Positions 17,571 through 59,887 of a DNA stretch of 64,000 bases are shown one piece after another; position 1 is the first letter of the stretch; each line of letters begins with the position of its first letter. Position numbers and translations under genes: made by a program. The DNA comes from Mobula hypostoma (Eukaryota): NCBI RefSeq assembly GCF_963921235.1, contig NC_086108.1, positions 84,942,001 through 85,006,000 of the forward strand. The letters run 5' to 3'. The notes beneath the pieces were generated by a model. The model was not told the DNA's origin and did no database searches. It worked only from the letters and a program-made list of their open reading frames with translations.

Positions 17571-18369
17571 ATACCCTACCCCTTTAATGTCACAAATCCA
17601 TTCAAGAATTAGCACTGAGCATCAAGAACTTCGGCTGATGTTACCTAGGACCTCACAGGGCATATTGCAGCATCTCTACTGTTCCTCTGCCTGAAATGAG
17701 CCACTCACATCTCCGATCAACACACAAAAGTGCTGGAGGACTTTACAGTTCAGGCAGCATCGACAGAAGGTAATAAACAACCCATGGATCAGGCAAAGAT
17801 CCTTCATCAGAACTATCCATTTTGTGAGTTGCTCAAGATTTACAACATCAACTGAATCACAGATCAAATATGTGTTTTTGATGAACTATATTAAATTTCA
17901 TTGTTCTTTGAATTTCTGCAAATGGAAGTGAGTGATTAAATCAGCATCCCTGCTAGGAATTATCCAGAAAAGAAATATGGTAATTCAACATCTCTTTCTG
18001 GCTTGAAAAAGGCATTCCGCCAGTGCCTTTTGGCATAGATGGATTGATTACCAGCATTTTTTTCCCCAGGGTGCCAAAGGCCAATACCAGAAAACATCCA
18101 TTTAAGTTAAAAGAAGGTAAGTATAGGGAAGATGTCAGAGGAAGTTTTAAACAGAGTTGTAAGTGCCCGGAATGTACTGCTAGGAATGGTGGTAGAGGCC
18201 AATACATTAGGGACATTTAAGAGACTTTTAGATAGGTACATGGATGTACGGTAAATGGGGGGTTATGGGCTGTGGAGGAAGGAAGGGTTAGATTAGAATC
18301 AGGTTTATTATCACTGACATGTGAGGTGAAATTTGTTAACTTAGCAGCAGTTCAATGCAATACATAATC

Positions 18370-19019: not shown

Positions 19020-20150
19020 AAGCCTTACTTTAATCCCCAGGGCTGACCAAATGTAGCCTTGGATTGTGTGGGATACCAGAGAAGAAATTGCAGGGGCCCT
19101 TGTGGAAGTTAATTGCTTCATCATGAGCCATGGGTGAGGCTCCTGAAGACGTGAAGGTGACAAATGTTGTTCTATTGTTTAAGGTTAGCAATAACAAGCC
19201 AGGGTACTACAGCACTGTCAACCTGACAACACCAACCCATGCAACTCATCATTCCGAGAAACAATTTTCAACTACAAGGGAAGTCAACTGGAGGCAATTC
19301 TGAAGGAAAGGATCTGCCAGCATTTGGATAGTCAAGAGTATGATTTGGGGGGCGGGGGGGAGGGGGGGCAGTGGATGTTGTCTATTTGGACTTTAACAAG
19401 GCTTTAGATATGCTAGGCTGGTCTAGAAGGTGAGGTCCCATGGAAACCAGGGAGAGCTAGTAAGGTAAATTCAAAATTGGCTTGGAGAAAGGAAGCATAA
19501 GGTTGTGGTTGAAACTTGTTTTTCGGAATGATGAGTTGCATGGGTTGGTATTGGGACCCTTGTAATTTGTTATTTATAAAACTGATTTGGATGTGAAGAC
19601 ACAAGACTAGATCAGCAAGTTTGCAGATGACAGGGGGATCTTATAATCAGGGCATCAAAGGTTACAGGAAGAGGGCAGTAGAATAGAGTAAAAGGGGATA
19701 ATAAATTAGTCATGATGGAACGGTGGAGCAGACTCAATGGGCCATTTTGTTGAAGTTGGAGAAGTCATCATTGAGGCCACACTTGGAGCACTGTGTACAA
19801 TTTTGGTCATCCTGTAATTGGAATAATACATTTAAGAGCACAGAAGGCTTACAAGGATATTGCCAGGACTAGAAAGTCTGAGTTACAGAGAGAGGTTGAC
19901 CAGGCTGGGTAGATATTCCTTGGAACGCATGAGATTGAGGGGCAAACTTACAGAAATGTTTAAAAATATCAGAGGCATAGATAAGGCGAATGGTAACAGG
20001 TTTCTCCCCAGTGCAAGGTAGTTGAAATATAGGAAGCACAGATATAGGGTGAGAGCAAGAATATTTAAAAAGGACCTGAGGAGCAAGTTTTTCATAGTCT
20101 GCATGGACTCAACTGGCCGAAGGCCTGTACCTGTGTTGCACTGCTCTATG
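19020..20150 (+). mobile_element. Old, internally deleted CR1 RT fragment
   Basis: Remnants of ANVVPLFK, VDVVYLDFNKA, SKFADD and RPHLEHCVQFWS. Confidence 0.75.
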
Positions 20151-20564
20151 ACTGCCGTTCTATGTGCTATAAATGATGAACTACGGGCCCTGCACCAATC
20201 CCCTGTGGCACTTCGCTAGTCTCAGGCTACCAGTCCAAAAAACAATCTTCTACCATCACTCTCTGCTTCCCAATAGCAAGCTAATTTTTTAATGCAGTTA
20301 GCTATCTCTCCCTGGAACCCATGTGATTCAGACCTTATAGACTAGCTTTTTCCTTTTCATTTTAGGTTTTCATCATCTGCAGTTTTTCAACATACATGCT
20401 TGCAGACTATTAATCTTACAGCTCTTTCTCTGCCAGGACAAATGTGTTGCATTGATTCTTTGTATCTGTATTTTTCAAAGTCTACTTAAATCCTTTAAGA
20501 TGGATGCACAACCGTGAATAAATTTACTCATAGAGAGTACCATAAATCAGATTAAAGTAAAATA

Positions 20565-23102
20565 TCTGTCCTCAGTAAGGGCCTCACGTTTGTCCCCCTT
20601 CGCCCACACCTCAGCGAGTTCCGTGTTCGCCACGATGCGGAACTTTTCTTCCGCCGTCTCCGTCTCCGAGCCTACTTCTTCGGCAAGGACTCTTCCACCC
20701 CCACCGATGACCGCTTCTCCCGTCTTCATCCCTCCTCTTCTTCATGGACACCCCGCTCTGGTCTTCTGCCTGCTCTGGATCTCTTTATTGCCAACTGCCG
20801 ACGGGACATCAACCGTCTCGACTTCACCGCACCTTGTCCCCATTCCAACCTCACTCCTTCGGAACGCTCTGCTCTCCACTCCCTCCGCACTAATCCTAAC
20901 ATTATTATTAAACCCGCTGATAAGGGGGGTGCTGTTGTAGTCTGGCGTACTGACCTCTACCTTGCCGAGGCACAGCGACAACTCGCGGATACCTCCTCTT
21001 ATTTACCCCTCGATCGTGACCCCACTAAGGAGCACCAGGCCATTGTCTCCCACACTATCAATGACTTTATCCGCTCAGGGGATCTCCCATCCACTGCTAC
21101 CAACCTTATAGTTCCCACACCCCGCACTTCCCGTTTCTACCTCCTACCCAAGATCCACAAACCTGCCTGTCCTGGCCGACCTATTGTCTCAGCTTGCTCC
21201 TGCCCCACCGAACTCGTTTCTGCATACCTCGACACTGTTTTATCACCCCTTGTTCAATCCCTTCCGACCTATGTTCGTGACACTTCTCACGCTCTTAAAC
21301 TTTTCGATGATTTTAAGTTCCCTGGCCCCCACCGCTTTATTTTCACCTTGGATGTCCAGTCCCTATATACTTCCATCCCCCATCAGGAAGGTCTCAAAGC
21401 TCTACGCTTCTTTTTGGATTCCAGACCTAATCAGTTCCCCTCTACCACCACTCTGCTCCGTCTAGCAGAATTAGTCCTTACTCTTAATAATTTCTCCTTT
21501 TGCTCCTCCCATTTCCTCCAAACTAAAGGTGTAGCTATGGGCACCCGTATGGGTCCTAGCTATGCGTGCCTTTTTGTTGGGTTTGTGGAACAATCTATGT
21601 TCCGTGCCTATTCTGGTATCTGTCCCCCACTTTTCCTTCGCTACATCGACGACTGCATTGGCGCTGCTTCCTGCACGCATGCAGAACTCGTTGACTTTAT
21701 TAACTTTGCCTCCAACTTTCACCCTGCCCTCAAGTTTACCTGGTCCATTTCTGACACCTCCCTCCCCTTTCTAGATCTTTCTGTCTCTGTCTCTGGAGAC
21801 AGCTTATCCACTGATGTCTACTATAAGCCTACTGACTCTCACAACTATCTGGACTATTCCTCTTCTCACCCTGTCTCTTGCAAAAACGCCATCCCCTTCT
21901 CGCAATTCCTCCGTCTCCGCCGCATCTGCTCTCAGGATGAGGCTTTTCATTCTAGGACGAGGGAGATGTCTTCATTTTTTAAAGAAAGGGGCTTCCCTTC
22001 CTCCACTATCAACTCTGCTCTTAAACGCATCTCCCCCATTTCACGTACATCTGCTCTCACTCCATTCTCCCACCACCCCACTAGGAATAGGGTTCCCCTG
22101 GTCCTCACCTACCACCCCACCAGCCTCCGGGTCCAACATATTATTCTCCGTAACTTCCGCCACCTCCAACGGGATCCCACCACTAAGCATATCTTTCCCT
22201 CCCCGCCTCTCTCTGCATTCCGCAGGGATCGCTCCCTACACAACTCCCTTGTCCATTCGTCCCCCCCCATCCCTCCCCACTGATCTCCCTCCTGGCACTT
22301 ATCCGTGTAAGCGGAACATGTGCTACACATGCCCTTACACTTCCTCCTTTACCACCATTCAGGGCCCCAAACAGTCCTTCCAGGTGAGGCATCACTTCAC
22401 CTGTGAGTCGACTGGGGTGATATACTGCGTCCGGTGCTCCCGATGTGGCCTTTTATATATTGGTGAGACCCGACGCAGACTGGGAGACCGCTTTGCTGAA
22501 CATCTACGCTCTGTCCGCCAGAGAAAGCAGGATCTCCCAGTGGCCACACATTTTAATTCCACATCCCATTCCCATTCTGACATGTCAGACACGGCCTCCT
22601 CTACTGTAAAGATGAAGCCACACTCAGGTTGGAGGAACAACACCTTATATTCCGTATGGGTAGCCTCCAACCTGATGGCATGAACATTGACTTCTCTAAC
22701 TTCCGCTAGGCCCCACCTCCCCCTCGTACCCCATCTGTTACTCTTTTTAATGCACACATTCTTTCTCTCACTCTCCTTTTTCTCCCTCTGTCCCTCTGAA
22801 TATACCTCTTGCCCATCCTCTGGGTCACCCCCCCCCCCGTCTTTCTTCACGGACCTCCTGTCCCATGATCCTCTCGTATCCCCTTCTGCCTATCACCTGT
22901 CCAGCTCTCGGCTCCATCCCTCCCCCTCCTGTCCTCTCCTATCATTTTGCATCTCCCCCTCCCCCTCCAGCTTTCAAATCCCTTACTCACTCCTCCTTCA
23001 GTTAGTCCTGACGAAGGGTCTCGGCCTGAAACGTCGACTGCGCCTCTTCCTATAGATGCTGCCTGGCCTGCTGCGTTCACCAGCAACTTTGATGTATGTT
23101 GG
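20565..23102 (+). mobile_element. Penelope-like retroelement (Neptune-type): RT, Cys linker, GIY-YIG endonuclease and 3' pseudo-LTR; 5'-truncated and young
   Basis: Stop-free frame from ~20556 to 22283 (LSKGLTF, KPADKGGAVVVW, FYLLPKIHK, GRPIVS, DVQSLYTSIP, GVAMG, RYIDD, FLDL, YYKPT). After a frameshift: CKRNMCYTC and VIYCVRCSRCGLLYIGET. Ends NIDFSNFR* at 22709. Confidence 0.95.
22999..23040 (+). ncRNA. Minimal type I hammerhead ribozyme, intact core
   Basis: cagttagtc-CTGACGA-agggtctcggcct-GAAA-C-GTC-gactg: CUGANGA and GAAA boxes, GUC cleavage triplet, stem I gtc/gac, palindromic ACGU stem III. Confidence 0.85.
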
Positions 23103-24269
23103 TTGTATTATTAGGAGTAACATTTTGAAGTTGAAACAAGGTTAGACTGAATCAACACAATTAAGTTATCATTAAATTACTTCCACAAAGCTAACAATGG
23201 AGGCTTTCAAATACTGTACAAAGAATAAACCAAGAGGAAGCATACACTAAGAAAATAGAAACTCTTTATTCCAGAGACACAAGTGACTGCAGAGTCTCTA
23301 GTCTGGATCAAAAATAAATTGGTGTAGGAACTCAGCAGGTCAAGCAGCATCCTCTCCACATCCATTTTATCAAGGCTTTTCACTATTCTATAGGTTTCAA
23401 TGAGGTCACCTTCTTCTCCAGAATTCTAGTGAATATACCCAGAGCCATGAAAGGCTCTCATTATTTAGCGGCATAGCGTCCCAAATAAACGAAGGGAATT
23501 CCACCTATTTTCTCAATCAGCTTTAAGGGTTGTCCCAAATAAGCAGCTGTGCTGATTAACCAATGGCTCAAATAATGTGGGTGAGAAAGTGGAAACAATT
23601 GTTAAAAAAGGAGGAGAAAATACAGATATGCAGCCACTCTGTATATTTAGGTATGAAAGCACAAATGTACGGCTAGCTTAAATCTGTTCTAATGTAACTC
23701 AAGCCACTACTTGCTAAAGTAAATAGCAAAACACCTCAAACATGAACCTTTGTTTTACAAATTTAATACAAGAACAGGTTTAATTATCAGATGGTAAACT
23801 TTAAAGCATGTTTTGCCCTTTTTAAGAAACCCTTTAACACATGAAAGACATCAGATTAAAAGGCTTTGAAACATAAGAACCACACCAATAAACAGAAATA
23901 AGTAAATTAAAAGGTTCCTAAAATATTACAATTCATTCTGAAAAAGTTGTGGAATGTTTGGATAACATTGCATGTCTATGGGACTACATAAAGTAATTAA
24001 AGTAAGGTACATTCTCATTTTAACATGTCCATTCTGCCTGAAACCAGATAATTCTTCTCTTAAAAAAATCTTCTCTAAAGCAACACTAGAACTTGAAGAC
24101 TTTGATGATAGTTTATAAATGAAAGGCCTGATACCTGTCTCCAGGAATTGCTGCCCATGGTATCTCCAGTTTCATACCTACTCGTTTAAATTTGCTGACA
24201 CAAAACATCCAAGACACTCATATTTCCTTACAACATATAAGGACAACCATTTTAGGCCACTGACTCCAT

Positions 24270-27495: not shown

Positions 27496-28437
27496 ACAAC
27501 ATCTCAAATTCTACAGTTAAATATCCCAAAAAGCAGTCCATCACGTCAATGTTCTCTGGGCCATTATTCAGTTGCTAAAATTTTCATCTAATGTTCCCTT
27601 TTCCCAGCAAATATTTCCTCAATTCTTTTGCCTCAACAGTGTATACTTATACATGGCTACAAACATTCAAGAACTCTATTCTTCCAGCTTTAACCACTCA
27701 CGCATTCCCCACTTCTTTTGCCCCTCTATTTACAGTCAAGCCATAGCCTGGAATTTTCAATATCCCCATCTCCACTGAATAAAACAGACGAAGGAGCCAA
27801 GCAAGTGTGAAACCCCTGCAGGATGAGCAGAGGAACTGATAACAGGAACAAGGAAATGGCAGATAAATTAGGAAGTAAAAGCTAGTCATTAAGAAAAGCT
27901 TAATGTGACCAAATCAAGTCAAAATGGTATCATCACACCGGCCAAATATAATAGAGTTCTTCAAAGAGATAACAAGTAGAGTCAACAGAAGGCATTTGAT
28001 GGGTGCTACATGTAAGGCTGATACATACAGATGTTGGCACAGACTGAATGGGCCGAAGGGCATGTTTCTGTGCTACAGTGTTCTGTGCAATAAGAGGTCA
28101 AGATATGAGAGGAAATGTCTTAGCATGGTCTGAAAACTAGCTATTGCATTAGAGTCAGAATATACTCATTGGCCGCTTTATAAGGTACCTCCTGTACCTG
28201 ATCAATTGGCTACTGCGTGTGTGTTTATGGTCTTCTGCTACTATATTGCCCTCTGACCTCATTCATTTTCAAGGCATTTTCACTCACAGAACTGCTGCTC
28301 ATTGGATTTTTTTTTGCTGTTTCTCACAAGTTTTTCTGTAAGCCTTAGAGAGTGTTGTGCATGAAAATCCCAGAAATCAGCAGTTTCTGCGATACTCAAT
28401 GGTCCCCATCTGGTACCAACAGTCATTCTATGGTCAA

Positions 28438-28670
28438 CAAACAAGAGAAAATCTGCAGATGCAGAAAATCCAAGCAACACACACAAAGTGCTGGAGGAAC
28501 TCAGCAGCTGGGCAGCATCTATCGAAAAGAGTACAGTCGACATTTCAAGCCAAGACCTTTCACAAGTCCAAATGTAGGGTCTCGGCCTGAAATATCAACT
28601 GTTTACAGGTACTCTTTCCCCTAGATGCTGCCCGGCCTGCTGAGTTCCTCCAGCATTTTTGTGTGTATTG
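28438..28670. mobile_element. 233 bp Penelope-derived hairpin element with perfect 13 bp TSD
   Basis: TSD attctatggtcaa at 28425-28437 and 28671-28683. Two inverted pseudo-LTR ends joined at a degenerate hammerhead. Confidence 0.85.
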
Positions 28671-28808
28671 ATTCTATGGTCAAAGTCACTTGGACCACAT
28701 TTCTTCCCCATCCTGATGTCTGGTCTGAACAACTGAACCTCTTGATCATATCTTCATATCTTTATGCATTGAATTGCTACCACGATTTGCAGATTAGATA
28801 TTGCATTA

Positions 28809-28945
28809 CAGACAAGAGAAAATCTGTAGATGCTGGAAATCAAAGTAATATACACAAAATGATGGAGGAAACCAGCAGGCCAGGCAGCAGCTATGGAAAA
28901 GAGTAAGCAGCCAACATTTCGGGCCCAGACCCTTGATCAGGATTC
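28809..28945 (-). mobile_element. Short Penelope pseudo-LTR tail insertion with ~12 bp TSD
   Basis: Flanks gatattgcatta and gatatttgcatta. Body runs from the hammerhead 5' stem to the full tail. Confidence 0.7.
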
Positions 28946-36299: not shown

Positions 36300-38922
36300 A
36301 ATATATTGGCGAGATCCAACGCAGGCTGGGAGACTGTTTCACTGAATACCTACGCTCTGTCTGCCAGAGAAAGCAGGATCTCCCAGTGGCCACACATTTT
36401 AATTCCATGTCCCATTCCCATTCTGATAATGTGTATCCACGGCCTCCTCTACTGTCAAGATGAAGCCGCACTTCATCTTAGCAAGGGCCTCACTTCTCTC
36501 CCCCTCTGTCCACACCTCAGTGTGTTCCATTTCCACCATGACGCTGAACTCTTCTTCTGTTGCCTATGTTTCCGAGCCTACTTCTTTGGCAAGGATTCCC
36601 CTCCCCCTACTGATGACCTCTTCTCCGGTCTTCAACCCTCCTCCTCCTCCTGGACACCCTGCCCAGGCCTTCTACCTGCACTCGATCTTTTTATCTCCAA
36701 CTGTTGCCGAGACATCAACCGTCTCAACTTCACCATTCCTCTCTCCTGTTCCAAACTCACTCCCTTTGAACACACTGCCCTCCACTCTCTCCGCACTAAT
36801 CGCAACATCACCATCAAACCCGCTGACAAAGGTGGTGCTGTAGTAGTCTGGCAGACGGACCTCTACCTCACTGAGGCCAAATGGCAGCTCTATGACACCT
36901 CCTCTTACTTACCCCTGGAACAGGATCCCACCAAAAAACATCAAACCATTGTCTCCCGTACCATCACCACCCTTATCAACTCCGGAGACCTTCCATCCTC
37001 AGCCACTAAACTCATAATTCCCACACCCCGTACCGCTGGGTTTTACCTCCTCCCCAAGATCCACAAGCCTGACTGTCCCGGTAGACTCATAGTTTCTGCC
37101 TGCTCCTGTCCCACCAAACTTGTATCTGCCTACGTGGACTCCATTTGTCACCCATAGTTCAGTCCCTCCCCACCTACATCCGGGATACACCCCATGCCTT
37201 CCACCTCTTCAATAACTTCCAGTTCCCCGGTCCCAACCGCTTCATTTTCACTATGATGTCCAATCCCTATACACCTCCATTCCCCATCAAGAAGGCCTCA
37301 AAGCCCTCCGCTACTTTCTGGATAATAGACCTCACCAGTTCCCCACCACCATTACCTTCCTCCAGTTGGCGGAACTGGTTCTCACACTCAATAACTTCTC
37401 TTTTGGCTCTTCCCACTTTCTTCAGGCTAAGGGTGTAGCTATGGGAACTTGCATGGGCCCTAGCTATGCCTGCCTCTTCGTTGGTTACGTGGAACAGTCT
37501 GTGCTCCAAACCTATTCTGGTACTGCTCCCCAACTTTTCCTTCAGTACATTGACGACTACATCGGAGCTGCTTCCTGCACCCATGCTGAGCTCATCAATT
37601 TCATCGACTTTACTTCAAACTCCACCCAGCCCTCAAATTCACTTGGTCTATCTCGGACACTTCTCTCCCTTTTCTCGATGTCTCGGTCTCCATCTCTGGA
37701 GACAGACTGTCCACTGACATCTTCTACAAGCCCACTGACTCTCATAACTACCTCGACTATACCTCTTCCCACCCCGCCACATGCAAAAATGCCATTCCCT
37801 ATTCCCAGTTCCTCCGTCTCCGCCGCATCTGCTCCCAGGACGAGGTTTTCCATTCCAGGTTATCTCAAATGTCCTCTTTAAGGATCGTGGTTTCCCTTCT
37901 GCTGTCATCAATGATGCCCTCACCTGCATCTCCTCCATTTCCCGCACTTCAGCCCTCACTCCATCCTCCCGCCACCACAACAGGGACAGAGTTCCCCTTG
38001 TCCTCACCTACCAACCCCGCCAGCCTCCGGATCCAGCACGTTATCCTCCGCAACTTCCGCCACCTTCAACAGGACCCCACCACCAAGCACATCTTTCCCT
38101 CTCCACCCCTCTCCACTTTCCACAGGGATCGGTCCCTCCCCACGGATCTCCCACCTGGCACTTATCCCTGTAAGCGGAAGTGCTACACCTGTCCCTACAC
38201 CTCCTCTCTTGCCACCATTCAGGGCCCCAAACAGTCCTTCCAGGTGAGGCAACACTTCACTTCTGAGTCTGTTGGGGTCATCTATTGCATCCGGTGCTCC
38301 CAGTGCAGCCTCCTCTACATCGGTGAAACCCGACGCAGATTGGGGGACCGCTTCGTTGAGCACCTCCACTCCATCCACCACAATAAACAGGATCTCCCGG
38401 TAGCCACCCAATTCAACTCTGCTTCCCATTCCCATTCAGATATGTCCATACATGGCCTCCTCTACTGCAATAATGAGGCTAAACTCAGGTTGGAGGAGCA
38501 ACACCTCATATACCGTCTAGGTAGTCTCCAGCCCCTTGGTATGAACATAGAATTCTCCAACTTCCAGTAATTCCCTCCCCCTCCCTTCCTTTATCCCTAT
38601 CTCACTCTGCCCCCTCCCCCAGCTGCCTATCACCTCCCTTATATTTCCGCCACTTTCTACTACCCATTGTGTTTTCCCCTATTCCTTCTTCACCTTTCCT
38701 GCCTATCACCTCCCTGCTTCCCCTCCCCCACCCCTTTATCTTTCCCCTTACTGGTTTTTTCACCTGGAACCTACCAGCCTTCTCCTTCCCACTCTCCCCC
38801 CACTTTCTTTATAAGCCTCTGCCCCTTCCCTCTACAGTCCTGACGAAGGGCTCCAGCCCAAAACGTCGACTGATCGTTTCAACGGATGCTGCCTGACCTG
38901 CTGAGTTCCTCCAGCATGTTGT
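36300..38922 (+). mobile_element. Second-subfamily Penelope-like element (RT plus GIY-YIG, decayed), preceded by a GIY-YIG fragment at 36300-36475
   Basis: LSKGL, KPADKGGAVVVW, FYLLPKIHK, GVAMG, QYIDD, CKRKCYTC, VIYCIRC..LYIGET. Degenerate hammerhead at 38835-38872. Confidence 0.93.
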
Positions 38923-38925
38923 GAG

Positions 38926-39440
38926 CGAAGCCACACTCAGGTTGGAGGAACAACACCTTATATCCCGTCTGGGTAGCCTCCAACCTGATGGCATGAACAT
39001 TGGCTTCTCAAACTTCCATTAATGCCCCACCTCCGCTTCGTACCCCATCCGTTATTTATTATTATATATTTTTTTTCTCTCTCTTTTTCTCCCTCTGCCC
39101 CTCTCATTATACTCCTTGCCCATCCTCTGGGATTCCACTCTCCCCCTTTCTTTCTCCCTAGGCCTCCCGTCCCATGATCCTTTCATATCCCTTTTGCCAA
39201 TCAACTTTCCAGCTCTTAGCTTCATCCCTCCCCCTCCTGCCTTCTTCTATCATTTTGGATCTCCCCCTCCCACTTTCAAATCTCTTACTATCTCTTCTTT
39301 CAGTTAGCCCTGACAAAGCATCTCGGCCCAAAACGTCGACTGTACTCTTCCTATAGATGCTGCTTGGCCTGCTGCATTCACCAGCAATTTTCATGTGTGT
39401 TGCTTGAAATCCAGCATCTGCAGATTTCCTCGTGTTTGCG
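38926..39440 (+). mobile_element. Penelope 3' fragment (endonuclease C-terminus, pseudo-LTR, full tail)
   Basis: EATLRLEEQHLISRLGSLQPDGMNI. Degenerate hammerhead 39301-39342. Confidence 0.85.
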
Positions 39441-39530
39441 CATTCACAAAAGGAAGGTATGAGTTTAAGCAACACACATCAAAGTTGCTGGTGAACACAG
39501 CAGGCCAGGCAGCATCTCCAGGAAGAGGTA

Positions 39531-39572
39531 CAGTCGACATTTCAGGCCGAGACCCTTCGTCAGGACTAACTG
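39531..39572 (-). ncRNA. Minimal hammerhead ribozyme with stem III ACGU changed to AUGU
   Basis: Reverse complement cagttagtcCTGACGAagggtctcggcctGAAATGTCgactg. Confidence 0.7.
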
Positions 39573-41479
39573 AAGGAAGAGTGAGTGAGGGATTTGAAAG
39601 TTGGAGGGAGAGGGGGAGGGGGAGATCCAAAATGATAGGAGAAGACAGGAGGGGGAGGGATAGAGCCGAGAGCTGGACAGGTGATAGGCAAAAGGGGATA
39701 CGAGAGGATCATGGGACAGGAGGTCTGCTGGGAAGAAAGATAAGGTGGGGGGGACCCAGAGGATGGGCAAGAGGTATATTCAGAGGGACAGAGGGAGAAA
39801 AAGGAGAGTGAGAGAAAGAATGTGTGCATAATTATAAGTAACAGATGGGGTACGAGGGGGAGGTGGGGCCTTAGCGGAAGTTAGAGAAGTCGATGTTCAT
39901 GCCATCAGGTTGGAGCCTACCCAGACGGAATATAAGGTGTCGTTCCTCCAACCTGAGTGTGGCTTCATCTTTACAGTAGAGGAGACCATGGATAGACATG
40001 TCAGAATGGGAATGGGATGTGGAATTAAAATGTGTGGCCACTGGGAGATCCTGCTTTCTCTGGCGGACAGAGCGTAGATGTTCCGTGCCTATTCTGGTAT
40101 CTGTCCCCCACTTTTCCTTCGCTACATCGACGACTGCATTGGCGCTGCTTCCTGCACGCATGCAGAACTCGTTGACTTTATTAACTTTGCCTCCAACTTT
40201 CACCCTGCCCTCAAGTTTACCTGGTCCATTTCCGACACCTCCCTTCCCTTTCTAGATCTTTCTGTCTCTGTCTCTGGAGACAGCTTATCCACTGATGTCT
40301 ACTATAAGCCTACTGACTCTCACAGCTATCTGGACTATTCCTCTTCTCACCCTGTCTCTTGCAAAAACGCCATCCCCTTCTCACAATTCCTCCGTCTCCG
40401 CCGCATCTGCTCTCAGGATGAGGCTTTTCATTCTAGGACAAGGGAGATGTCTTCCTTTTTTAAAGGAAGGGGCTTCCCTTCCTCCACTATCAACTCTGCT
40501 CTTAAACGCATCTCCCCCATTTCACGTACATCTGCTCTCACTCCATCCTCCCGCCACCCCTCTAGGAATAGGGTTCCCCTGGTTCTCACCTACCACCCCA
40601 CCAGCCTCCGGGTCCAACATATTATTCTCCGTAACTTCCGCCACCTCCAACGGGATCCCACCACTAAGCACATCTTTCCCTCCCCTCCGCTCTCTCTGCA
40701 TTCCACAGGGATCGCTCCCTACGCAACTCCCTTGTCCATTCATCCCCCCCATCCCTCCCCACTGATCTCCCTCCGGGCACTTATCCGTGTAAGCAGAACA
40801 AGTGCTACACATGCCCTTACACTTCCTCCCTTACCACCATTCAGGGCCCCAAACAGTCCTTCCAGGTGAGGCAACACTTCACCTGTGAGTCGACTGGGGT
40901 GATATACTGCGTCCGGTGCTCCCGATGTGGCCTTTTATATATTGGCGAGACCCGACGCAGACTGGGAGACCGCTTTGCTGAACATCTACGCTCTGTCCGC
41001 CAGAGAAAGCAGGATCTCCCAGTGGCCACACATTTTAATTCCACATCCCATTCTCATTCTGACATGTCTATCCACGGCCTCCTCTACTGTCAAGATGAAG
41101 CCACACTCAGGTTGGAGGAACAACACCTTATATTCCGTCTGGGTAGCCTCCAACCTGATGGCATGAACATCAACTTCTCTAACTTCTGCTAAGGCCCCAC
41201 CTCCCCCTCGTACCCCATCTGTTACTTATTTTTTATGCACACATTCTTTCTCTCACTCCTTTTTCTCCCTCTGTCCCTCTGAATATACCTCTTGCCCATC
41301 CTCTGGGTTCCCCCCACTTATCTTTCTTCCCAGACCTCCTGTCCCATGATCCTCTCGTATCCCCTTTTGCCTATCACCTGTCCAGCTCTTGGCTCTATCC
41401 CTCCCCCTCCTGTCTTCTCCTATCATTTTGCATCTCCCCCTCCCCCTCCAACTTTCAAATCCCTTACTCACTCTTCCTT

Positions 41480-41521
41480 CAGTTAGTCCTGACGAAGGGT
41501 CTCGGCCTGAAACGTCGACTG
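41480..41521 (+). ncRNA. Minimal type I hammerhead ribozyme, intact core
   Basis: cagttagtcCTGACGAagggtctcggcctGAAACGTCgactg. Confidence 0.85.
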
Positions 41522-42713
41522 TACCTCTTCCTAGAGATGCTGCCTGGCCTGCTGCGTTCACCAGCAACTTTGATGTGTGTTGCTTGAATTTCCAGCATCT
41601 GCAGAATTCCTGTTGTATGAGTTTAAGGACTGGACTAAATTAGTGGACTAATTAAGGACTGGACCCAATTACAAAGGGCTTGCAATTGCAACTTATTTTG
41701 TCCCTTCCCTACGTCAGGAAACACAGGTGTGCTACTTTTACTCAGGATGCATTAAAACAGAACACAATAAGCATTTATGTAAATAGGTGGAAACATGCAG
41801 ATATTCTCACAACACAGCAAGACCTGTATGCAAAAATACGAAGAACAATTAAAAATGTTTCTTTCATATTCAGATTTGGAAAGTAAATATTTGGGACGTC
41901 TTTCCCTTTCTATAGATCATAATGCAGGTTGAACCATACATTCACAATGATTTTCAAATTTGAAATGAGATTCTCCAAGTCTTGACATACTTCCAAGATT
42001 TTCATTTCTGAAATACTTCTTCTGAACAAAAAGATAAAATGTTAGTTATGGTGTATCTTTATTTTGCTATAATATTCAACAAGCCAATATTCACAGAAAA
42101 TGATAAACATGTTGAGATTGCCCATGGCCAACAATAACAAAGTAATTTGAATTTTCAGAGCTGAATGTGGACTCACAGAGGAATCAGAAGTGGAGAGAGT
42201 GAGCAGCTTCAAGTTCCTGGGTGTCAAGATCTCTGAGGATCTAACATGGTTCCAACATATCAATGTAGTTATAAAGAAGGCAAGACAGCGGCTATACTTC
42301 ATTAGGAGTTTGAAAAGATTTGGAACAGTAACAAATACACTCAAAAACTTCAATAGTTGTACCGAGGAGAGCATTCTGACAGGCTGCATCACAGTCTGGT
42401 ATGGAGGGGCTACTGCACAGGACCAAAAGAAGCTGCAGAAGGTTGTAAATCTAGTCAGCACCATCTTGGGTACTAGCCTACAAAGTACCCAGGACATCTT
42501 TAGGGAGCGGTGTCTCAGAAAGGTAGCGTCCATTATTAAGGATCTCCAGCACCCAGGGCATGCCCTTTTCTCACTGTCACCATTGGGTACAGAAGCTTGA
42601 AGGCACACACTCAGCGATTCAGGAACAGCTTCTTCCCCTCTGCCATCCAATTCCTAAATGGACACTGAATCTTTGGACACTACCTCACATTTTTGAAAAA
42701 AAATATAGAACAC

Positions 42714-46405: not shown

Positions 46406-49400
46406 TGTGCAAGAGTGAAAATGAATACATCAGCTTTCCAATGCAAACAATTTTCAGAAGTGAAGCTATAGAACAAAAGGAGTGATATAGTATTTAAAAT
46501 TCAGCTGTAGAAGATTCTGACCACCCTGATAATCAATTACTTCGAATGGGATTAGGACATATGCCACCAAAGTGTGGATAATGGTAGAAATCCAAGTGAT
46601 CAGAGTCTCAGAGGAAATTTGGATCCTCGGAAGATAGCAACATTTACAATCTGATTATTTTGAGTGCTGAAGATTAGCATAACAAAGAAAAATTGCCCAG
46701 CAATTGAAAATATAATTTCTTTGAGTAAACACAGTTGGCTAGTGAAGTGGGGTTTTTAAAAGGCACAGCTGGAACTGATCACATTTAATGTTTTTAAAGG
46801 AAATTGCACATTTAGCTGCAGAAGAGAAAATAGTGCTGAACCATTTCAGCAAATAGATTTACATCTTAACTTACACCTTTGCCATTTTCAGTCAATTTAT
46901 GCTCAGTAACTCTGGAGTAAAAATTCACTACCCTTTGGGTGAAATGTTTTCTCACCTCTGTTCTGAAGGGCTGGCCCACTAACTAAACGTGCTTCTTTAG
47001 ACGCCATCTCCTCATCTACCCCATCACAACCCATTCGAATATTTGTACATTTCAATGAGAACACCTCAAATTCACCTGAACACCTGAGAAAATAAACTCA
47101 ATTCGCTTAACAGGATTTACTCTCTGACTCCAGGAATCATTACTGTGAACTTCTGTTGCATTCCATCGACTGCAATAACCAGTGCAGACTCACCAGGTAC
47201 AATATGGCCTTCTCATTCCTTATAGAATAGCCTTTTACTACCACTCCAAAGATTGCAAGAGATTTTCTAATGCTTCCTTTCTCCCAGTACTGTGATACAG
47301 CTAATCTGAGAATAGTAAATTATAAGGCTTCAAACTCAACATTTAAAATCTTACTTAAAGACTGATTTGGTGAAAGAGCAAAGGGAATAAATAGTGTCAC
47401 AGTCAGAACACTTCAGCATAGAAAGAGGTTCTTCAGCCTATCTAGTCTATGCTAGTCTGGCAAGTCCAATCTACATGCACCAGGACCACAGCCCTCCATA
47501 CCTCTCTCATCCACGTACCTATCCAAATTTCTCTTCAATATTACAATTGAACCTGCATCTACCACTTCAATGGCATCTCATTCCACACTCAAATCACCCT
47601 CTCAGTGAGGGGGTTTCCGCTCAGATTCTCCTTAAATATGTCAGCTTTCATCCTAAACCAATGACCTCTACTTCTAGTCTCACCCTCTCTGCGAGGAAAT
47701 AAACCTACATGCATTCACCCTGACTACCCCTTTGTATACATTTATCAACATCTCCCCTCATTCTCTGCACTCCAGGGAAAAAAGTCCAAACCCTTTTCAA
47801 CCTATGTCGGAACTAGGTATTTTTTTTAAATGCCAAGACCCAAGACCGGAGTCCAGTAAAAACAATAAACAAACAAAATAAAATACTGAAGGTCTGAAAG
47901 GCAGAGAACTCAATGTTGCAAAATAACATACTGAAATTTGAATCTTCACCTGCTTATTGTGATTGAAAAGATGGTAGAAATCATGTTTCACAGAAATATA
48001 TTCAATCCAAAACAAAACATTCAATCATGGTCATCATAATTTAACAATATTTAGGAAAACAAAAAAAAAAATCTGATGAGGCTTTGCCTATGCTCTGTTT
48101 TAATTACCGAGTTTATTTATTTTTGGCTCCTATCATTTCAATTCCTTATCCTTATTCTGAAAACTCATCCGCTGAAATTTCTCACAATTAGGTCCTAGCA
48201 AAGGTATTGCTATTGTCTACCAATAAACTAACTTGAATATTGTGGCAATGTCATGGGACCCTTTATCAAGATGGGGTAGCTGGGTAAAAATCACTGAAAG
48301 AAATTGCCTCTTCCTTACCTGCTTTCAGTGGTGATTTTACCCACTGCGGTTAGGGATAGGGAGGTGGTGCAGTAAACTGACCTCCATGGCCCCTTGATCC
48401 CCTGTAGCCTGAATAACTCCTAATCTGGGTTTTCAGACAGTACATTACTAAGGAAGTACTACAGTGCTCGCAATATCTTTTTACAGATAGCAATCACAGG
48501 GGATTATTCAATAAGGAAGGGCTAATCCAGTACTATTTTGCACAACATCAAGCAAAATAGTCTACCTAATTATTTAATTGCTCTTTTGCTAAGACTCACA
48601 TTCCACAACCTTGGTGGAGGGTTCACTTGAACAGAAAGCAAATTCAACTGTGTCATTTCTGGCAGTTATCAAGCACTCTCACCTCTAAATAGGAATGCCC
48701 CTGCTTTATTCTGTAGCTCAGGCACATACACAACAATCTAAACTGGCACTCTAGTGCAACACTGCATTGTCAGTAGCGATGGCCTCAATCTCTTTTTGGC
48801 AAATTAAAAGCACATAAGATTGCATACAATATCATGCATTAAAAAAACTGGTTCACTGCCAGGAAACAGAAAGGGCTACAGTTTTTCATAATGTTGTACC
48901 TCAGATTTGAATGAGGGAACCTAGTGTAACGTTTGCTGACAACAAAAATACAGGTGAGATTGCAAGTTGTAAGGAGCATACAAAGAGACTTGATGGTAAT
49001 TTGGAGAAGCTGAGCAAGTGAATACAAGGCCAATGCAGTAAAATATGGATCGGTATAGTATTACATTATTGATAAACTTAGAAATGCTGAAGCACAGAGG
49101 GCGTTTTTTTTTTCAGATGCAGTAAGCAATTAATAAGCCAGGCAATGCATTAGCCTTCATTGCAAGACGTGCCATTAGAAACACGGATATCTTTCTTCAA
49201 GTTTACAGGTTCTTTGTGAGATCAATCCTACAGAACTCAAGCTACACACACATAATGCTGAAAGAACTCAGCAGGCCAGACAGCATCTATGGAAAAGAGT
49301 ACAGTCAACACTTCAGGCCGAGACCTTTGGGTCAACAAGACTGAAAAGCTGACTGTCGACTTCAGAAAGGGTAAGATGAGTGAAAACAAGCCATTCCTCA

Positions 49401-49579
49401 GGTCTCAGCCTGAAACGGCAATTGTGCTTGTATGTCTTGCTAGAGAACTCAGTTTTGGTCTGTCAAAGAGGATAAACCTGTTGCAAAACCAGTCCAACGA
49501 AACTTCTCCAATGGATTCCTAGAATTCATTCATATCAACATTATCAACTCCTGCCTGAGAAACGACATAGATCTGCTCC

Positions 49580-50850
49580 ATTGTGCAACAAGTCCACCAC
49601 TGGATCCTTGACTCCCTAACAGGCAGACCACAATCTATGCGGATTGGAAATAACACCTCCACCTCGCTGACAATCAACACTGGTGCACCACAGGGATGTG
49701 AGCTTAGACCTCAGGTCTACTCTCTCTGCACCCATAACAGTGTAGCTAAACACAGCTCAAATACCACCTATATATTTGCTGATGACACAACTATTGGCAG
49801 AATTTCAGATGGTTATGAAAGGATGTACAGGAGTGAGATTTACTAGTTAGTTGAGTTGTGTCACAACAACTACCTTGCACTCAATGTCAGCAGGACCAAA
49901 AAGCTGATTATGGATTTCAGTGAGGGTAAGATGAGGGAAGACAAACCGATCCTCATAGAGGGATCAGAAGTGGAGAGAGTGAGCAATTTTAAATTCTTGG
50001 GTGTCAATATCGCTGAGGACCTAACCTCGACTCAACATATTGATGCAGCTATAAAGAAGGCAAGATAGCAGCTGTATTTCATTGGGAGATGGCAGAGAGG
50101 AAGAAGCTGTTCCTAAATCCCTGAGAGTGTGGCTTCAGGCTTCTGTACCTCCTTCCCAACAGTAAGAAGAGGGTATGTCCTGGGTGGTGAGGGTCCTTAA
50201 TAATGGATGCTCCTTGAAGTTGTCTTTTGCACACTGGCTGAATGCAGTCTTTCATTGATTCTGCTATAGTTATTATTCTATGGATTTATTGAGTATGCTC
50301 ACAAGAAAATGAATCTCATTTTTGAACTTGGTGACATATATATGGTGATAATAAATTTATGAGGGGTGACTAATAAGTTCATGGCCTAAGGGTAGGAGGA
50401 GTCAATTTTAGAAAACCTAACACATTTATTTTTCAACATAGTCCCCTCCTGCATTTACACACTTAGTCCAGCGGTCGTGGAGCATACAGATCTTGGACCT
50501 CCAGAAAGTGTCCACCGCAGGAGTGGTTGATAAGTTTGTGGCCTAAGGTAGAAAGAGGAGAGTTATTAACTTCAAACTTTCTGCATAATCACTCAGAGTT
50601 GAACTGCATTTACATGTAATGAGAGCCATATAACTCATCTCCTTCTACCTTAGGCCATGAACTTATCAATCACCCCTGCTGTGGACCACTTTCTAGAGGC
50701 CCAAGATCTGTATGCTCCACGGCCGCTGGACTAAGTGTGTAAATGTAGGAGGGGACTATGTTGAAAAATAAATGTGCTAGGTTTTCTAAAAGTGACTCCT
50801 TCTACCTTAGGCCACGAACTTATCAATCACCCCTTGTACTTTGAACTTTC
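49580..50850 (+). mobile_element. Rex1/Babar RT 3' fragment with a mariner MITE inserted in its tail
   Basis: [33 protein letters not shown]. Confidence 0.85.
50360..50836. mobile_element. Second copy of the four-TIR mariner MITE, centre in opposite orientation to 1502-1986
   Basis: TA|TGAGGGGTGACTAATAAG...TTATCAATCACCCCTTG|TA. Removal restores the Rex1 tail ataataaattTActttgaact. Confidence 0.88.
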
Positions 50851-53745: not shown

Positions 53746-56607
53746 TTTGGAATGGCAAGGCAGGCCGTAGGGTCCATTTAACCTACTTGTTTCTCTTATT
53801 TTCTCTTGAAGCAATGCATAACACTGTTTTCTAACAGAGATATTGTGTGTGTGGGGGGGGGAAGAGAAATAAGTGTAGAGACTGATATGTCAAATGGCTC
53901 ACAGTGTTAGTAAATTTGGCTGCAATTTCAGATGAGGCTACATAATGAAACAATGACAATTTGCAATTGTTATCCAAGTGAGATCCTCAAGGGCTTGTCA
54001 ATAGTAAGAGCTGTTGGTCATGAAGTTATTCATCATTTGAAATTAATTCAATTTGCAGCAGGTGTTAAACTTTTGAACAGTGAACATAGTCTAGAGACAA
54101 CGAAGCTCTTCCATTTTAAAGACTGCTTTGAAGTAGTACAAGATCAGACTGGAAATGCAGAGTCTGAATTCAGGAAGACTGGCTTCAATGTAGGATCCTC
54201 ACTTTTATCCAAATATCCTGCAGGAACATCCATTCAGACTGTGCTTCCAAAAGTTGCAAAGAAGGTAGGGTAGGGATGGTAAGACAAAAATATCTCAGAT
54301 AGGATGCAGCCAGGATTGCTGAAGTTATTCATTCTCCCTCACCCTTGCTGCCACCTGTTTTCGTATGAAAGGATTCTCTCTGAAATGTTATCACTTTCTC
54401 TTGCCACAGTTGCTGACTGATCTACTGAGAATTTGCAAAGTTTACTTTGGAATTATTGGAACAAATATTCCAATATTTTTTGTCAGCAGCATTCCATCAG
54501 AACTGAAATTATACTTTGTTCTTCTGCCTCCACAAACGCTGGTGATTTGCTATCCAACATCTACTGAATTCTACTTCTGTTTTCCAACTAACAGTTTTCC
54601 TTGATATTGGGAACATTTGAATCAAATTACCACTTACTTCCAGAGAATATAATCTCAATGCGTGTTATCTCATTATCTTAACAGATAGTGATAAAAGAAT
54701 TGAACTGACAAATCAAACGTCCACTCCAAGGTCAATATATGCTTGACAGTATTATGACTACAACTGATCATAAAAATTTACATGCAGTCAGATTTTAACT
54801 TCTATTCCCTTATTTTTACCTTCTAAATATAAAGATAAGTGTTCCAATATCGTACTTGACTGTTTTCTCCATGAAGTGGTGGTCCAGTGAGAGCTCCAAG
54901 TACATACTTTGGTTTTCAACATTTAAAGAAAAGACTAGCATTTTGGACAGGCGCCTTTCAAACCTTTTTGAAAGTAATTTGTAGCCAATGATGTACTCTT
55001 CAAGTACAATTACTGATGTTAGGAATAAAACTTGGTAGTCTTCTGAACACAGCATCATTGTGGGGAAAAAAATCAGTGCAAATGGAGAAAAGAGAGATAC
55101 AAGTGACCTGAATATGCCAATGATTGCTCATGATATCCAAAAAGAAACCCCTACTGTTATTTTGTGGGATTAGCAGCGAATGTAATAAAATTATCTGATA
55201 ATGGTCAATATGGGGCAAGTAAAAATTGGGCATGTGGGAAAAAGCTAAAAATGGAGGAACACTAAAGTTTCAGGGTTACAGAACTGAACTCTGTTACAGA
55301 GGTAAGGCAGACTCACATGTGCATTTGAATATGATGAGCATTTTCAGTCTACTAAGTTATTAATGTAAATAATTTTATATATCTTTATAAAATTAAAGGC
55401 AAAGAGTTCTCCCTCTAACAATTCAAAAATATTGCCATTATATTCAGTGTTATTAGAAGTATGATTGACTCAATATTTTTAAAAGTCACCTAATTGATTT
55501 TAAACAGTTGTACAACAACCCTTGTTCATATCCTGCAGCAGCTCTTCTAGCTACCTTTACATTAATTCATGTTTCCACACTGATTTCATTGGGTTTCAGG
55601 CACTGGTTCACAATGTAGATCCTACAATTAACCACTTCTCATTTCTTCTATTTAAGAACTGGAAACCTATTGACTTACTTTCATTTCATCAAAAGTGAAT
55701 GCTCTATTTCTGGAATCATAGCAATGTATTCAGGAAAATACAACTAAATTCATTGTTATGGTTGCAGTTTAAAAATAAGCGGCACAATCTCACAAACCAT
55801 CTTATTCAAGGCTTGATGAATTATGACAATTTTGTCGACCCAAGTTCTTTTGTATGAACATTTCAGTTCACCATTAGTTATTAGTACATATTCAGATTTT
55901 TTCATATTTCCAAATTAACTGGAAATTTCAGCTTTGTATGGTAACTTACTTCCGAGTAGAACTATTGCTTCTGCCTGCTCGTTCCACAGACCTTCTCTTC
56001 ATTTCTTGGCTCCATCCTCTCTTCCCCGGTCCTTTTCCATTTAATGGCTACATTATTTCAGCCTACTGCAGACATACCCTTTTTTTTACCACTGGCCTTG
56101 CCCCCCATTACATACCCTCAGCTTCTCTGCTCCTCAGACTAATTTGCTTCCTCTCTTTCTCAGCTGAAGGGACTCAGATGCTGCCTTAGCTGCTGAGTTT
56201 TTCCAGTATTGCCTGTTTTTTTAATATGCAAATTTTTGTTTGGGATGATACTTGTGTTGCAATGAGTTAATATGAAATCTGCCACCTTTCAAAAATCAAA
56301 GTTCAAAGTAAATTTATTATCAAAATCCATATATGTCAAATACTATCCAGGGATTCATTTCCTTGCAGGCAATCGCAGTAAAACAAAGAAGTACAATAGA
56401 ATCAATGAAAAACTACAAAAAAACTCACAAATAGTGCAAATACAAACATGTAATAATACTAATATTAATTAATTAATAAATAAATAAAACAGAGAACATA
56501 AGTTGTAGATTCCTTTAAAGTGAGTCCAGAAGTTGTGTTCAATGATCAATTCGGTGCTGTGGTGAATGATGATGTCCACACTGGTTCAGAAGCCTGACGG
56601 TTAAAGG

Positions 56608-57040: not shown

Positions 57041-58250
57041 CAATAACTGCTTCTGAAGACCCAAGGCTCCTGTACCTTCTTCCTAATGGTAACAAGAATA
57101 ACTTCAGTTTATTTTTTTCATATTTCAAATGGCTTTAAATTTTTACAACATATTCATGCTGAGAGATTTGAGGGAATTTTAACTGTCATGCCAGTAAGAA
57201 ATTATCTTTTTTGCAGTTTCTACAGGCTTTCTGTCACTTTAGTTGACACAAATAAGATCGTGTATGTGTTTATATAACATTATTGTGTCACAATGGAATC
57301 ATGGTGACATGTCCTTTGTGATGTTAAATATCCATTTATATGTGGTATTCAAGTGTAGACTAACATTTCAGTTATGTGAGCCAAATAATCTTCAATAAAT
57401 TTCAGAGAACAATATTTACTTTGTGAGTGGTTGTATAGCAAATCTGGCCAATTGCCAAATTAAATTAAAATATAAAGTCATTTCAATTTCACACTGAATT
57501 TTTCCACCTTATAGGACAGTGCACAGAAACATCAATCAGTCTGGAAGGAAAAACAAATGTCTCCAATTCATTGCTGACACTAATTCTGCATTGGAGCTAC
57601 ATGAATGAAATGTTTTTACGGTGACATGATACTAAAACCATACAATTTTACAAGCTATTACTGAAAGAAACAGCAGCCAGCAAGAGACTGAGGTGCAAAC
57701 TACATAATGACCTAATGACTTAACACACTTAAATCAATTTATCAGACAAAATATACAAATAAGGGATCATTTTCCTTAAACTGATACTGTTGTCTCCACT
57801 CTTGGCTCCAACCCATGACACTGAAAAAAAAGAGCTGGAAAATGCCAACTGAATGAATAAAAAGAACAGAGGTAATGCAAACTATGGGGAATTGAGGGAT
57901 AACCTGTGACATTTTCATCAGTATTGCTTCCAGGTTTAGCAGAATAATCAACAAATTTAGTTTTTAAAAACGCCTCCAATGCAGCCTGTATTTTCTTTTA
58001 AACAAATTGCAAATATAAAATTGCACCTGAATGAGCCCTCCGGTTTTTTTGAACTATAAGCTCTGATAGTAAAAGATCTAATTCAGAGAAGTGAAATCAA
58101 TACATCTACAGTCCATGCTAATAAAAAGGTACCTTAAATCTCAGATTAATACTTTTGCTGCATCCCATAAGAACAAAAATCTATCAAAACAACCAATCAT
58201 CAATTTCATAACATTGTTAGCTACAGAGAAAATAAAGTTATTAACTTTGA

Positions 58251-58482
58251 GTAACACACAAACAAAATGCTGGTGGAACGCAGCATCCATAGGAAGAAGT
58301 ACAGTCAACATTTCAGGCTGAGACCCTTTGACAAGAAGGGTCTTTCATCCTGACGAAGGGTCTCGGCCTGAAACGTCGACTGTACTTCTTCCTATGGATG
58401 CTGCCTGGCCTGCTGCGTTCCACCAGCATTTTGTGTGTGTTGCTTGAATTTCCAGCATCTGAAGATTTCCTCGTGTTTGCAC
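58251..58482. mobile_element. 232 bp Penelope-derived hairpin element with perfect 12 bp TSD and an intact hammerhead core (58350-58377, plus strand)
   Basis: TSD tattaactttga at 58239-58250 and 58483-58494. CTGACGAagggtctcggcctGAAACGTC. Confidence 0.88.
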
Positions 58483-59887
58483 TATTAACTTTGACTTTGG
58501 TTCAATAATATCTCATTAACTGCAAAAACATCACAACTTTTAGTCTACTTTGTACTTGTCCTATATTTTAATATTTGACTCTCCCTATTTTCATTCCCAA
58601 ATTTCAGAATCAGAATCACTTCGTTGTCAGTCTTTGATATATAATAGAATTTATTGTGGTTTGTTACTAAGCATAAAAACAAGTTGATAACGTAACAGAC
58701 AACACAATAGCAACCAATAATTTACAAGACAATAGTGTAAACAGCCATGAACAATCAACAATTAGCAGAATGGTCATATATGCAAAGGTCAATAATAAAA
58801 CTTAAATAAATGTGAACATATGAACAGACACAGCAAAACAAAGAGAGCAGGAAAGACTATTTAAGTGATGTTGTACGGAACAATTAGGGTATTACACCCG
58901 AGTGAGTTTTCTTGAGAAGCTTGGAAGCTACACGAAAGAAGCTTCAGAGATGACATGCAGTCCTGGTGGTGATGGATTCGAGGTATCTTCCTGATGGCAA
59001 TTTTGAGAATAGGTGACTGCCTGGGCGGGTGGAGTCAGTAGTAAACTTTTTCCAGTTCTTTTCTTCACGCTAGCAATGATGACTTTCCACCTCGATTCCC
59101 AAACCCGCACTAAACAAGAAGTTTGTTCCATCCCGTTCAAAGACAACAACTAGCTCCAATTCTCCACAAACCAAAAATATTTCCTCCTGCACTAATTCTG
59201 TATTCAATCATTAAGATAGTTAATTTCAATGTTCTAGCACAAGGCATCAATAGCAATTCAGAAAATATATTTCAGATACTGAATTATAAAAGTGGCAATT
59301 CCTCCACCACTGTCTTCTGTTTCATCTCAGTTTATTCTTTCCCTTCTATAGCACTCTTGCCTTTTTGTGCAAAGCAATACCCACCCCTATTACACCAAAA
59401 TATTGTATCTATGCAAAGGGGGATCCATTTGAGCTGCACTCCAAACATAAGTAAACAACTGTGGTAAAATTTGCTTAGACTTCTTTTGTTCTGTGAAATA
59501 TCAACAGGAGAACATTTATCCCACTTTAGTAAAACATTTTCAGGCCGATATCATCATCTTAGTGATTCACCTGTAAACTGGTTATATTAGTGTTTCTGAT
59601 GTCAATAGTTTCCTTCAAGAGTATATATCTCATAAATAATTAAGCAACTCTTTCACTCATTAATGCAAGTTGCACTCAGTTAAAATCAATACAGGATGTC
59701 CCAATTCCCTATTCTGCTTGAGTTAGTAAGGCATGAAGTTATTTAAAACTGGCCTTTAGTCTTATGGACTAGATCTTAATGGTTAATTGCATTAAGACTT
59801 GTAGTACCTCAAGATCTTCAGTTTCCCATTTAGCCTTTTCTCACATTTGCTGACAATAGCTGGCATTGTTCACATTATTTTATATCA

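Follow-up and report, generated by a model that had tools for sequence, protein, structure and literature searches.

Short Penelope-like hairpins in Mobula hypostoma are minimal head-to-head insertions with an apparent preferred stop beside the hammerhead

Complex insertions of EN+ Penelope-like elements (PLEs), in which an inverted 5′-truncated copy, a one-sided tail and a target-site duplication (TSD) occur together, are already on record (PMC8557442, PMC3846280, PMC2377424; statements about published systems refer throughout to those parts of the cited sources that were covered), and the suggestion in an earlier note that the locus treated here represents an undescribed system was thereby not upheld. 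The origin of inverted and tailed PLE insertions is nevertheless still called undefined (PMC8557442, PMC11167929). With the Anolis element PAc in vitro, both target strands are cut and extended, ribozyme cleavage is dispensable, reverse transcription is initiated from two internal positions of the RNA, one on either side of the tail, and a dimeric protein is predicted (PMC11167929). In the Penelope element of Drosophila virilis, the intron terminates at the 5′ border of hammerhead helix I (PMC4209133), 46 nt plus 75 nt downstream of the transcription start (PMC2377424).

The window analyzed here is a stretch of 64 000 nucleotides from Mobula hypostoma (NC_086108.1, positions 84,942,001 to 85,006,000), and all coordinates below count from its first letter. 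It holds two short hairpins, each of which consists of two head-to-head 3′ ends of the window's own Penelope-like element and lies at the short end of an already described size series. As a system they are not new, being minimal head-to-head Penelope-like insertions that are ordinary in kind; the unusual part is what appears to be a precise stop at an acceptor- or initiator-like edge of hammerhead stem I.

The hairpins span 58251-58482 (232 bp; the 58-kb element) and 28438-28670 (233 bp; the 28-kb element), confirming the coordinates and lengths first assigned to them. Each also has its own TSD, as had been claimed, with exact repeats of 12 bp (58239-58250/58483-58494) and 13 bp (28425-28437/28671-28683), while in a control with 3000 random position pairs spaced 233 bp apart the boundary repeat never exceeded 10 bp. 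The parts of the two elements are the following, where reference positions are those of the copy at 39457-41627 described further below.

58239-58250, unstranded: left TSD of the 58-kb element, 12 bp, exact repeat of 58483-58494
58251-58336, minus strand: tail-less inverted arm of the 58-kb element, beginning at reference 41487, with a 12-bp deletion, a broken hammerhead core and four of four scorable CpGs lost
58337-58347, unstranded: 11-nt junction filler of the 58-kb element, its last 7 nt matching the upstream tract of the subfamily (4561-4590), with the next 5 nt missing
58348-58482, plus strand: tailed arm of the 58-kb element, with a hammerhead (core from 58350, predicted cleavage after 58377), an ATG with 28 open codons and a tail of about 35 nt
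58483-58494, unstranded: right TSD of the 58-kb element, exact repeat of 58239-58250
28425-28437, unstranded: left TSD of the 28-kb element, 13 bp, exact repeat of 28671-28683
28438-28566, minus strand: tailed arm of the 28-kb element, of a different, older subfamily, with a decayed core and its inner end at about reference 41488 (±3)
28567-28670, plus strand: tail-less arm of the 28-kb element, with an 8-bp insertion, a decayed core and its inner end at about reference 41485-41487
28671-28683, unstranded: right TSD of the 28-kb element, exact repeat of 28425-28437

Both elements fold into strong hairpins (-139.9 and -144.1 kcal/mol; z -17 and -18; none of 200 shuffles equally stable), so that their description as palindromes stands with the refinement that the arms are unequal, a tail of about 35 nt being present on one arm only. 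Their ends had also been called ribozyme-bearing, which is correct for one arm of the four, 58348-58482, where the hammerhead core CUGAnGA is kept, the core being broken in the other three. Stem I of that arm is weakened, and a minimal-hammerhead descriptor matched none of the four named arms; within the hairpin, the hammerhead conformer of 58348-58482 was calculated at -106.7 as compared with -139.9 kcal/mol, a cost of about 33 kcal/mol. The inversion centre, placed by the earlier note at or just 5′ of the core, is indeed on the 5′ side: it falls at the 5′ strand of stem I, some 30 nt upstream of where cleavage is predicted. That the elements lack coding sequence was nearly right, except that the ATG in arm 58348-58482 opens 28 codons running through the tail, a frame that is likely the start of the parent ORF.

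The filler together with the tailed arm at 58341-58352 equals the subfamily sequence minus exactly 5 nt (GT at the start and AG at the end), a single case that could reflect a chance template jump or a splice from a donor in one tandem repeat to an acceptor in the next. An Rfam search of the window gave no match to any hammerhead family at E ≤ 1, and its only matches were two sub-threshold microRNA models on the back-to-back arms at 39321-39552. At that site two neighbouring insertions make up a tail-to-tail hairpin, scoring 71.7 bits against a gathering threshold of 230 for the microRNA precursor model. We rejected a microRNA identity, these being generic hairpin matches below threshold, and the tail-to-tail hairpin is likely a source of false microRNA calls.

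All four hairpin arms match the 3′ end of a many-copy repeat in the window, a long copy of which has the following structure.

20556-23109, plus strand: long parent copy, with a 575-aa RT frame (20556-22280), a GIY-YIG region, a pyrimidine tract, an intact minimal hammerhead and a tail-less end

The parent RT matched RVT_1 at E 1.5e-5, below the Pfam cut-off, and the endonuclease matched GIY-YIG at E 1.2e-4, just above the cut-off; a DKG motif and an internal cysteine pair could also be read, as in EN+ Penelope-like elements. The linker between RT and endonuclease contains C-x4-C-x2-C (frame 40668-41189), fitting the CX2-5CxxC motif that marks the Neptune and Nematis clades (PMC8557442). Because a survey found vertebrate PLEs to be Neptune and Poseidon only (bioRxiv 10.64898/2026.07.22.740005), Neptune is the likelier clade of the parent over Nematis, as judged from linker motif and survey. 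The parent protein had 2223 homologues, with best identities of 88–92% in rays and 67–71% in sharks. After the ORF come about 300 nt of pyrimidine-rich sequence, the minimal hammerhead, an ATG with a short frame and the end of the element, and the minimal-hammerhead descriptor identified predicted ribozymes in three intact parent copies in the window, compared with a mean of 0.06 in 50 shuffles.

Further features were seen in the same window. Hammerhead-type terminal repeats at 23307-23352, 54366-54429 and 56175-56210 are older and more diverged, and probably come from other Penelope families. Two long copies of different subfamilies (76% identical), at 20556-20571 and 36477, are 5′-truncated within about 15 bp of one point at an LSKGL motif, possibly a second preferred stop. 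Penelope copies are nested at 36301-39441: the inner one (36477-38926) is long and belongs to another subfamily, the outer one is shorter, and roughly 12 bp are duplicated. The outer, host copy has a duplication of 10 bp, and 28 bp further downstream follows a third insertion (39470-41614). The segments 17435-17535 and 19644-19744 (101 bp, 100% identical, 2.2 kb apart) reflect either a recent duplication or an assembly feature.

The layout of the two hairpins recurs in the window at other sizes, together with single arms.

39457-41627, unstranded: 2.1-kb fold-back serving as the reference copy, with a 13-bp TSD, a tail-less inverted arm (39470-40083), a tailed direct arm (40078-41614) and a 6-bp junction overlap
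3817-4671, unstranded: fold-back of about 0.85 kb with the same layout, inserted in a Tc1-type transposase, its duplication degenerate
49228-49451, unstranded: old disrupted fold-back, with a 12-bp TSD having one mismatch, a tail-less arm (49240-49331, minus strand), a 70-bp LINE-like filler (49331-49400) and a remnant arm (49401-49439, plus strand)
28809-28942, minus strand: single tailed stub starting exactly at reference 41487, with an 8-bp exact flanking repeat
17712-17812, minus strand: old tail-less arm starting at reference 41485-41487 (nhmmer E 1.2e-9, no hits on the reversed control)

Of the two-armed insertions that are intact, four in number (232 bp, 233 bp, some 0.85 kb and 2.1 kb), every one has a tailed and a tail-less arm, and three have an exact TSD of 12–13 bp; the 3′ ends of the element copies in the window fall into two classes about 35 nt apart. 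A head-to-head inverted 5′-truncated copy accompanying a direct copy, as in EN+ Penelope-like insertions, is present. The disrupted relative that had been suspected at about 49240-49425 is real and spans 49240-49439, having a recognisable arm and a remnant inside its 12-bp duplication with one mismatch; its 70-bp filler is 79% identical to a LINE-like stretch at 49886-49955, some 500 bp downstream, and may have been copied from DNA close by or from a different RNA when the ends were joined. Arm 17712-17812 is followed by sequence resembling a decayed tailed end. The 0.85-kb fold-back splits a Tc1/Sleeping Beauty-type transposase fragment (3289-3816, minus strand); by chance the Penelope ATG and tail read in frame into this fragment, which creates a chimeric frame of 204 codons.

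We compared the two hairpins with each other and with the other arms. They were 82% identical (175/213 aligned bases) with differing private indels, and their centres were unlike, with an 11-nt filler in the 58-kb element versus decayed arms directly abutting in the 28-kb element. In a tree of 15 arms built without CpG columns, they fell on opposite sides of a split supported at 95/92, each with different parent copies. Owing to this identity, the different subfamilies and the different centres, the two were likely made separately and are not copies of one MITE, as far as their sequences tell, and a self-propagating non-autonomous family, which the earlier note had offered, was not borne out. 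Its remark that the elements look like MITEs while their TSDs suggest retrotransposition is right in the second half, with retrotransposition rather than DNA transposition and a Penelope derivation, whereas the hallmarks of MITEs were absent: instead of homogeneous copies with a shared interior, the two copies compared had the low identity and the unlike centres and subfamilies just given, and instead of terminal inverted repeats shared with a DNA transposon, the arms match a Penelope 3′ end and have ends about 35 nt apart. Retrozyme-like head-to-tail tandem units with complete hammerheads were likewise not seen, each element being a single head-to-head pair and one core of the four being intact.

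It is accordingly quite unlikely, in our estimate, that the hairpins form a non-autonomous MITE-like or retrozyme-like family that is transcribed whole and re-inserted by a Penelope enzyme recognising the pLTR ends. Two, perhaps three, copies that share one layout and are almost equal in length would agree with such a family, as would the mobilisation of unrelated sequence in trans by pLTRs in a rotifer (PMC3846280) and the existence of non-autonomous PLE derivatives (PMC8557442; bioRxiv 10.64898/2026.07.22.740005). The differing subfamilies, centres and private indels speak against it, together with the core being broken in three of four arms and buried by the hairpin in the fourth, the absence of tandem units and, weakly, the lack of a dominant shared junction among the 15 of 1606 read-contig joints listed.

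Within the insertions, the arms of the long ones are each other's closest copies (17/535 and 12/217 non-CpG differences). For the short ones, where some 80 sites could be scored, the partner was not clearly nearest: the 58-kb arms had 3/68 differences to the partner versus 3/79 to another copy, and the 28-kb arms 13/78 versus 10/79. The choice between one and two templates for the paired arms concerned 3, 1 and 2 informative sites only. In the 58-kb element the nearly pristine tailed arm keeps five of five CpGs and the tail-less arm none of four (Fisher p 0.008), an asymmetry that insertion at the same time does not predict and that could be due to later gene conversion or to a diverged second template.

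The inner ends of the arms were then placed on the reference copy, where they cluster at one boundary.

41465-41521, plus strand: recurrent boundary on the reference copy, with a pyrimidine tract and YAG, followed by stem I and the hammerhead, whose core is at 41489 and whose predicted scissile bond lies after 41516

Seven of 19 arms in the window start within the 8-nt span 41484-41491, at the 5′ edge of stem I. Leaving out the four named arms, 3 of 15 start there (28942, 17812 and 49331), giving p 0.012 to 0.0002 under exponential truncation with means of 150–1000 nt, and a more cautious count, with a wider span and the 49-kb element taken once, gave p 0.008–0.09; these values apply to the one window analyzed and to a span chosen after the data were seen, with the inner ends at 28.5, 49.3 and 17.8 kb being decayed (±3 nt). 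Excluded from the 19 arms were nhmmer hits at E 0.64 and E 0.025, both weak, together with the diverged copy at 56 kb, and 38927-39441 was counted jointly with 36301-36472, the two being taken for a single copy with an interruption. The base that follows the AG at the end of the tract, 41487, is the starting point of both 58-kb arms and of the single stub 28809-28942. This AG precedes 41487 directly in eight of nine tract-retaining copies, with a pyrimidine fraction of 0.73–0.82, and we take the tract with its YAG at 41487 to read as a splice acceptor or an initiator.

It is likely that copying tends to end at a single place immediately ahead of the ribozyme, and the length of the hairpins would be set in this way: with 3′ ends at about 41582 and about 41619, such a stop gives arms of 96 and 133 bp, together 229 bp, and the matching lengths of the two elements then need no common ancestor. 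Truncation at the ribozyme cleavage site was rejected, none of the 19 arms ending within about 4 nt of 41516/41517. With regards to the proposed stalling and template switching at the hammerhead, a recurrent breakpoint does adjoin the hammerhead, but stalling at the structure itself is doubtful, since an RT copying RNA from 3′ to 5′ meets the fold at its 3′ edge (about 41521), whereas the arms extend through the entire ribozyme before they end.

Contigs from four of 24 sequencing runs were also placed on 40731-41630, and they revealed the repeat to be abundant in three organisms. Summed contig depth, which does not translate into copy number, rose across 41481 from 4.9e6 to 14.5e6 in run X1 and from 2.9e6 to 8.1e6 in X7, the best ORF bin being 9.2e6. 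Loose contig ends before 41485 numbered 847 and 760, and comparable counts of contigs (664 and 567 in X1) part from the reference at 41186-41192. The consensus of the loose ends is pyrimidine-rich, and divergent upstream tracts of other subfamilies could give both the depth step and the loose ends. Of the joints, 15 of 1606 and 12 of 482 rows were listed; no splice joint from the ORF end to 41487 was among the 15 of 1606, and the deepest one listed from the DNA run of the species itself had a depth of 314, as compared with a summed depth of about 1e7 over the hammerhead, some joints being uncounted. Run X12 comes from an organism that is less closely related; in it, 41605-41610 and 41528-41538 are connected by several well-supported joints, which could be short tandem (retrozyme-like) units or inverted joins. 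A scan with a 23-nt pattern gave no matches in viral, metagenome and prokaryote-genome collections, and one with a 19-nt pattern gave 119 metagenome loci, none of them homologous to the element.

Taken together, we consider it probable that each hairpin is one independent insertion in which both nicked strands primed reverse transcription and both copies ended just before the hammerhead. One cDNA would be primed at each nick, one from each of the two start sites, yielding a tailed and a tail-less arm, with the two-nick priming being borrowed by analogy from a Poseidon-clade element. Each cDNA would then stop at YAG|TCC: the template may start at this edge, as an initiator or splice acceptor, or the RT may drop off upon entering the pyrimidine tract. 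The two cDNA ends would afterwards be joined via microhomology or short templated filler (as in the 6-bp overlap 40078-40083 and the filler 58337-58347, the latter presumably arising by template jumps). The single-armed stub 28809-28942 starts at the same base, so that the stop needs no fold-back. In the 58-kb element, 7 nt of the filler match the upstream tract, and this suggests a template that ran past the boundary, which counts against a strict RNA 5′ end. The hairpin products themselves are likely dead ends.

For the origin of the second arm, the main alternative is that a single cDNA turned on a small palindrome near the 5′ edge of the hammerhead and copied itself; the insertions would still be independent and ordinary. 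Self-priming has been favoured for PLEs with palindromes at inverted junctions (PMC3846280, Arkhipova et al. 2013), and it would be in keeping with a 4-bp inverted repeat around 41479-41492 on the reference copy, with the self-complementary stem I, with the arms of long insertions being sisters and with a joint between 41521 and 41485 (run X1, depth 146), which would agree with a turn at stem I provided that it changes strand. The 58-kb centre, however, fits no simple turn at either palindrome and holds its 11-nt filler, the arms of the long insertions are very unequal in length and joined by a short overlap, and the single-armed stub ends at the same base; we thus regard self-priming as unlikely. 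Very improbable is that the hairpins took shape after insertion, either by cruciform- or hairpin-driven collapse of longer inverted-repeat insertions or by the later arrival of the second arm at a solo pLTR already in place. The unequal CpG loss of the two 58-kb arms, the Penelope-into-Penelope nesting at 36477-38926 and the cutting within its own pLTR noted for PAc (PMC11167929) are compatible with such events, but one TSD brackets both arms, and deletion leaves the repeated ends at one base and the single-armed stub unexplained.

Priming from both nicks being the preferred reading, a bolder version of it, which we put forward only tentatively and with some doubt, holds that the YAG|TCC stop is a real RNA boundary, a splice acceptor or a transcription start at stem I. 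On this view each hairpin would represent the element's whole mRNA leader, copied by priming at the two tail sites from both nicks, and in the boldest form of the reading some hairpins would be re-transcribed and re-mobilised. If true, ray and shark genomes would hold a very large record of where vertebrate Penelope RNA starts, how it is spliced and how it is used by a dimeric RT.

Stubs of this kind represent the minimal product of the insertion process, and a precise preferred stop would separate two-nick priming from self-priming and locate the 5′ boundary of the RNA. In practical terms, annotation can confuse hairpins of this type with MITEs or with microRNA precursors. Neither PLE hairpins of about 230 bp nor a preferred stop at stem I were found in the literature searched by title or listing, with most subscription papers, Repbase/Dfam entries and supplements being outside that scope.

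Compared with known systems, the closest are the complex EN+ Penelope-like insertions, which share the head-to-head inverted copy, the one-sided tail of 30–40 bp, the TSD, a hammerhead in the terminal repeat and an ORF start inside the repeat (PMC8557442, PMC3846280, PMC2377424). The present hairpins differ from the insertions in the covered parts of those accounts in that both copies are only about 100–135 bp and without RT or endonuclease sequence, in the TSD of 12–13 bp as compared with 8–10 bp in the rotifer examples, and in that both inner ends coincide at one site. PAc, the Poseidon element of Anolis, similarly has two classes of 3′ ends about 35 nt apart, AT-rich TSDs and no ends at the ribozyme cleavage site (PMC11167929), whereas the element studied here has the CX2-5CxxC linker of Neptune/Nematis, and the inverted pairs and preferred 5′ stop treated here are absent from the portions of the PAc account that were covered.

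The core CUGAnGA...GAAA-CG-UC without stem III is that of the minimal hammerheads of metazoan PLEs (PMC4209133), a source that also noted close hammerhead pairs (100–700 bp) on opposite strands in Schistosoma, and the end of the D. virilis intron given there, at the 5′ end of helix I, is the position of the boundary found here; TSD-bounded hairpins and truncation tied to the stem I edge are not described in its covered parts. Non-LTR retrozymes resemble the hairpins in being short, non-coding and related to PLE pLTRs, with a type I hammerhead and an occurrence in a cartilaginous fish (bioRxiv 10.64898/2026.07.22.740005; PMC7229834), but they are head-to-tail tandem units with working ribozymes, as opposed to single head-to-head pairs with mostly broken cores. 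MITEs, finally, are likewise short and non-coding with long inverted repeats and TSDs (PMC8969392), whereas the arms of the present hairpins are unequal 3′ ends of a retrotransposon instead of transposase-binding repeats, and the copies do not make up one homogeneous family.
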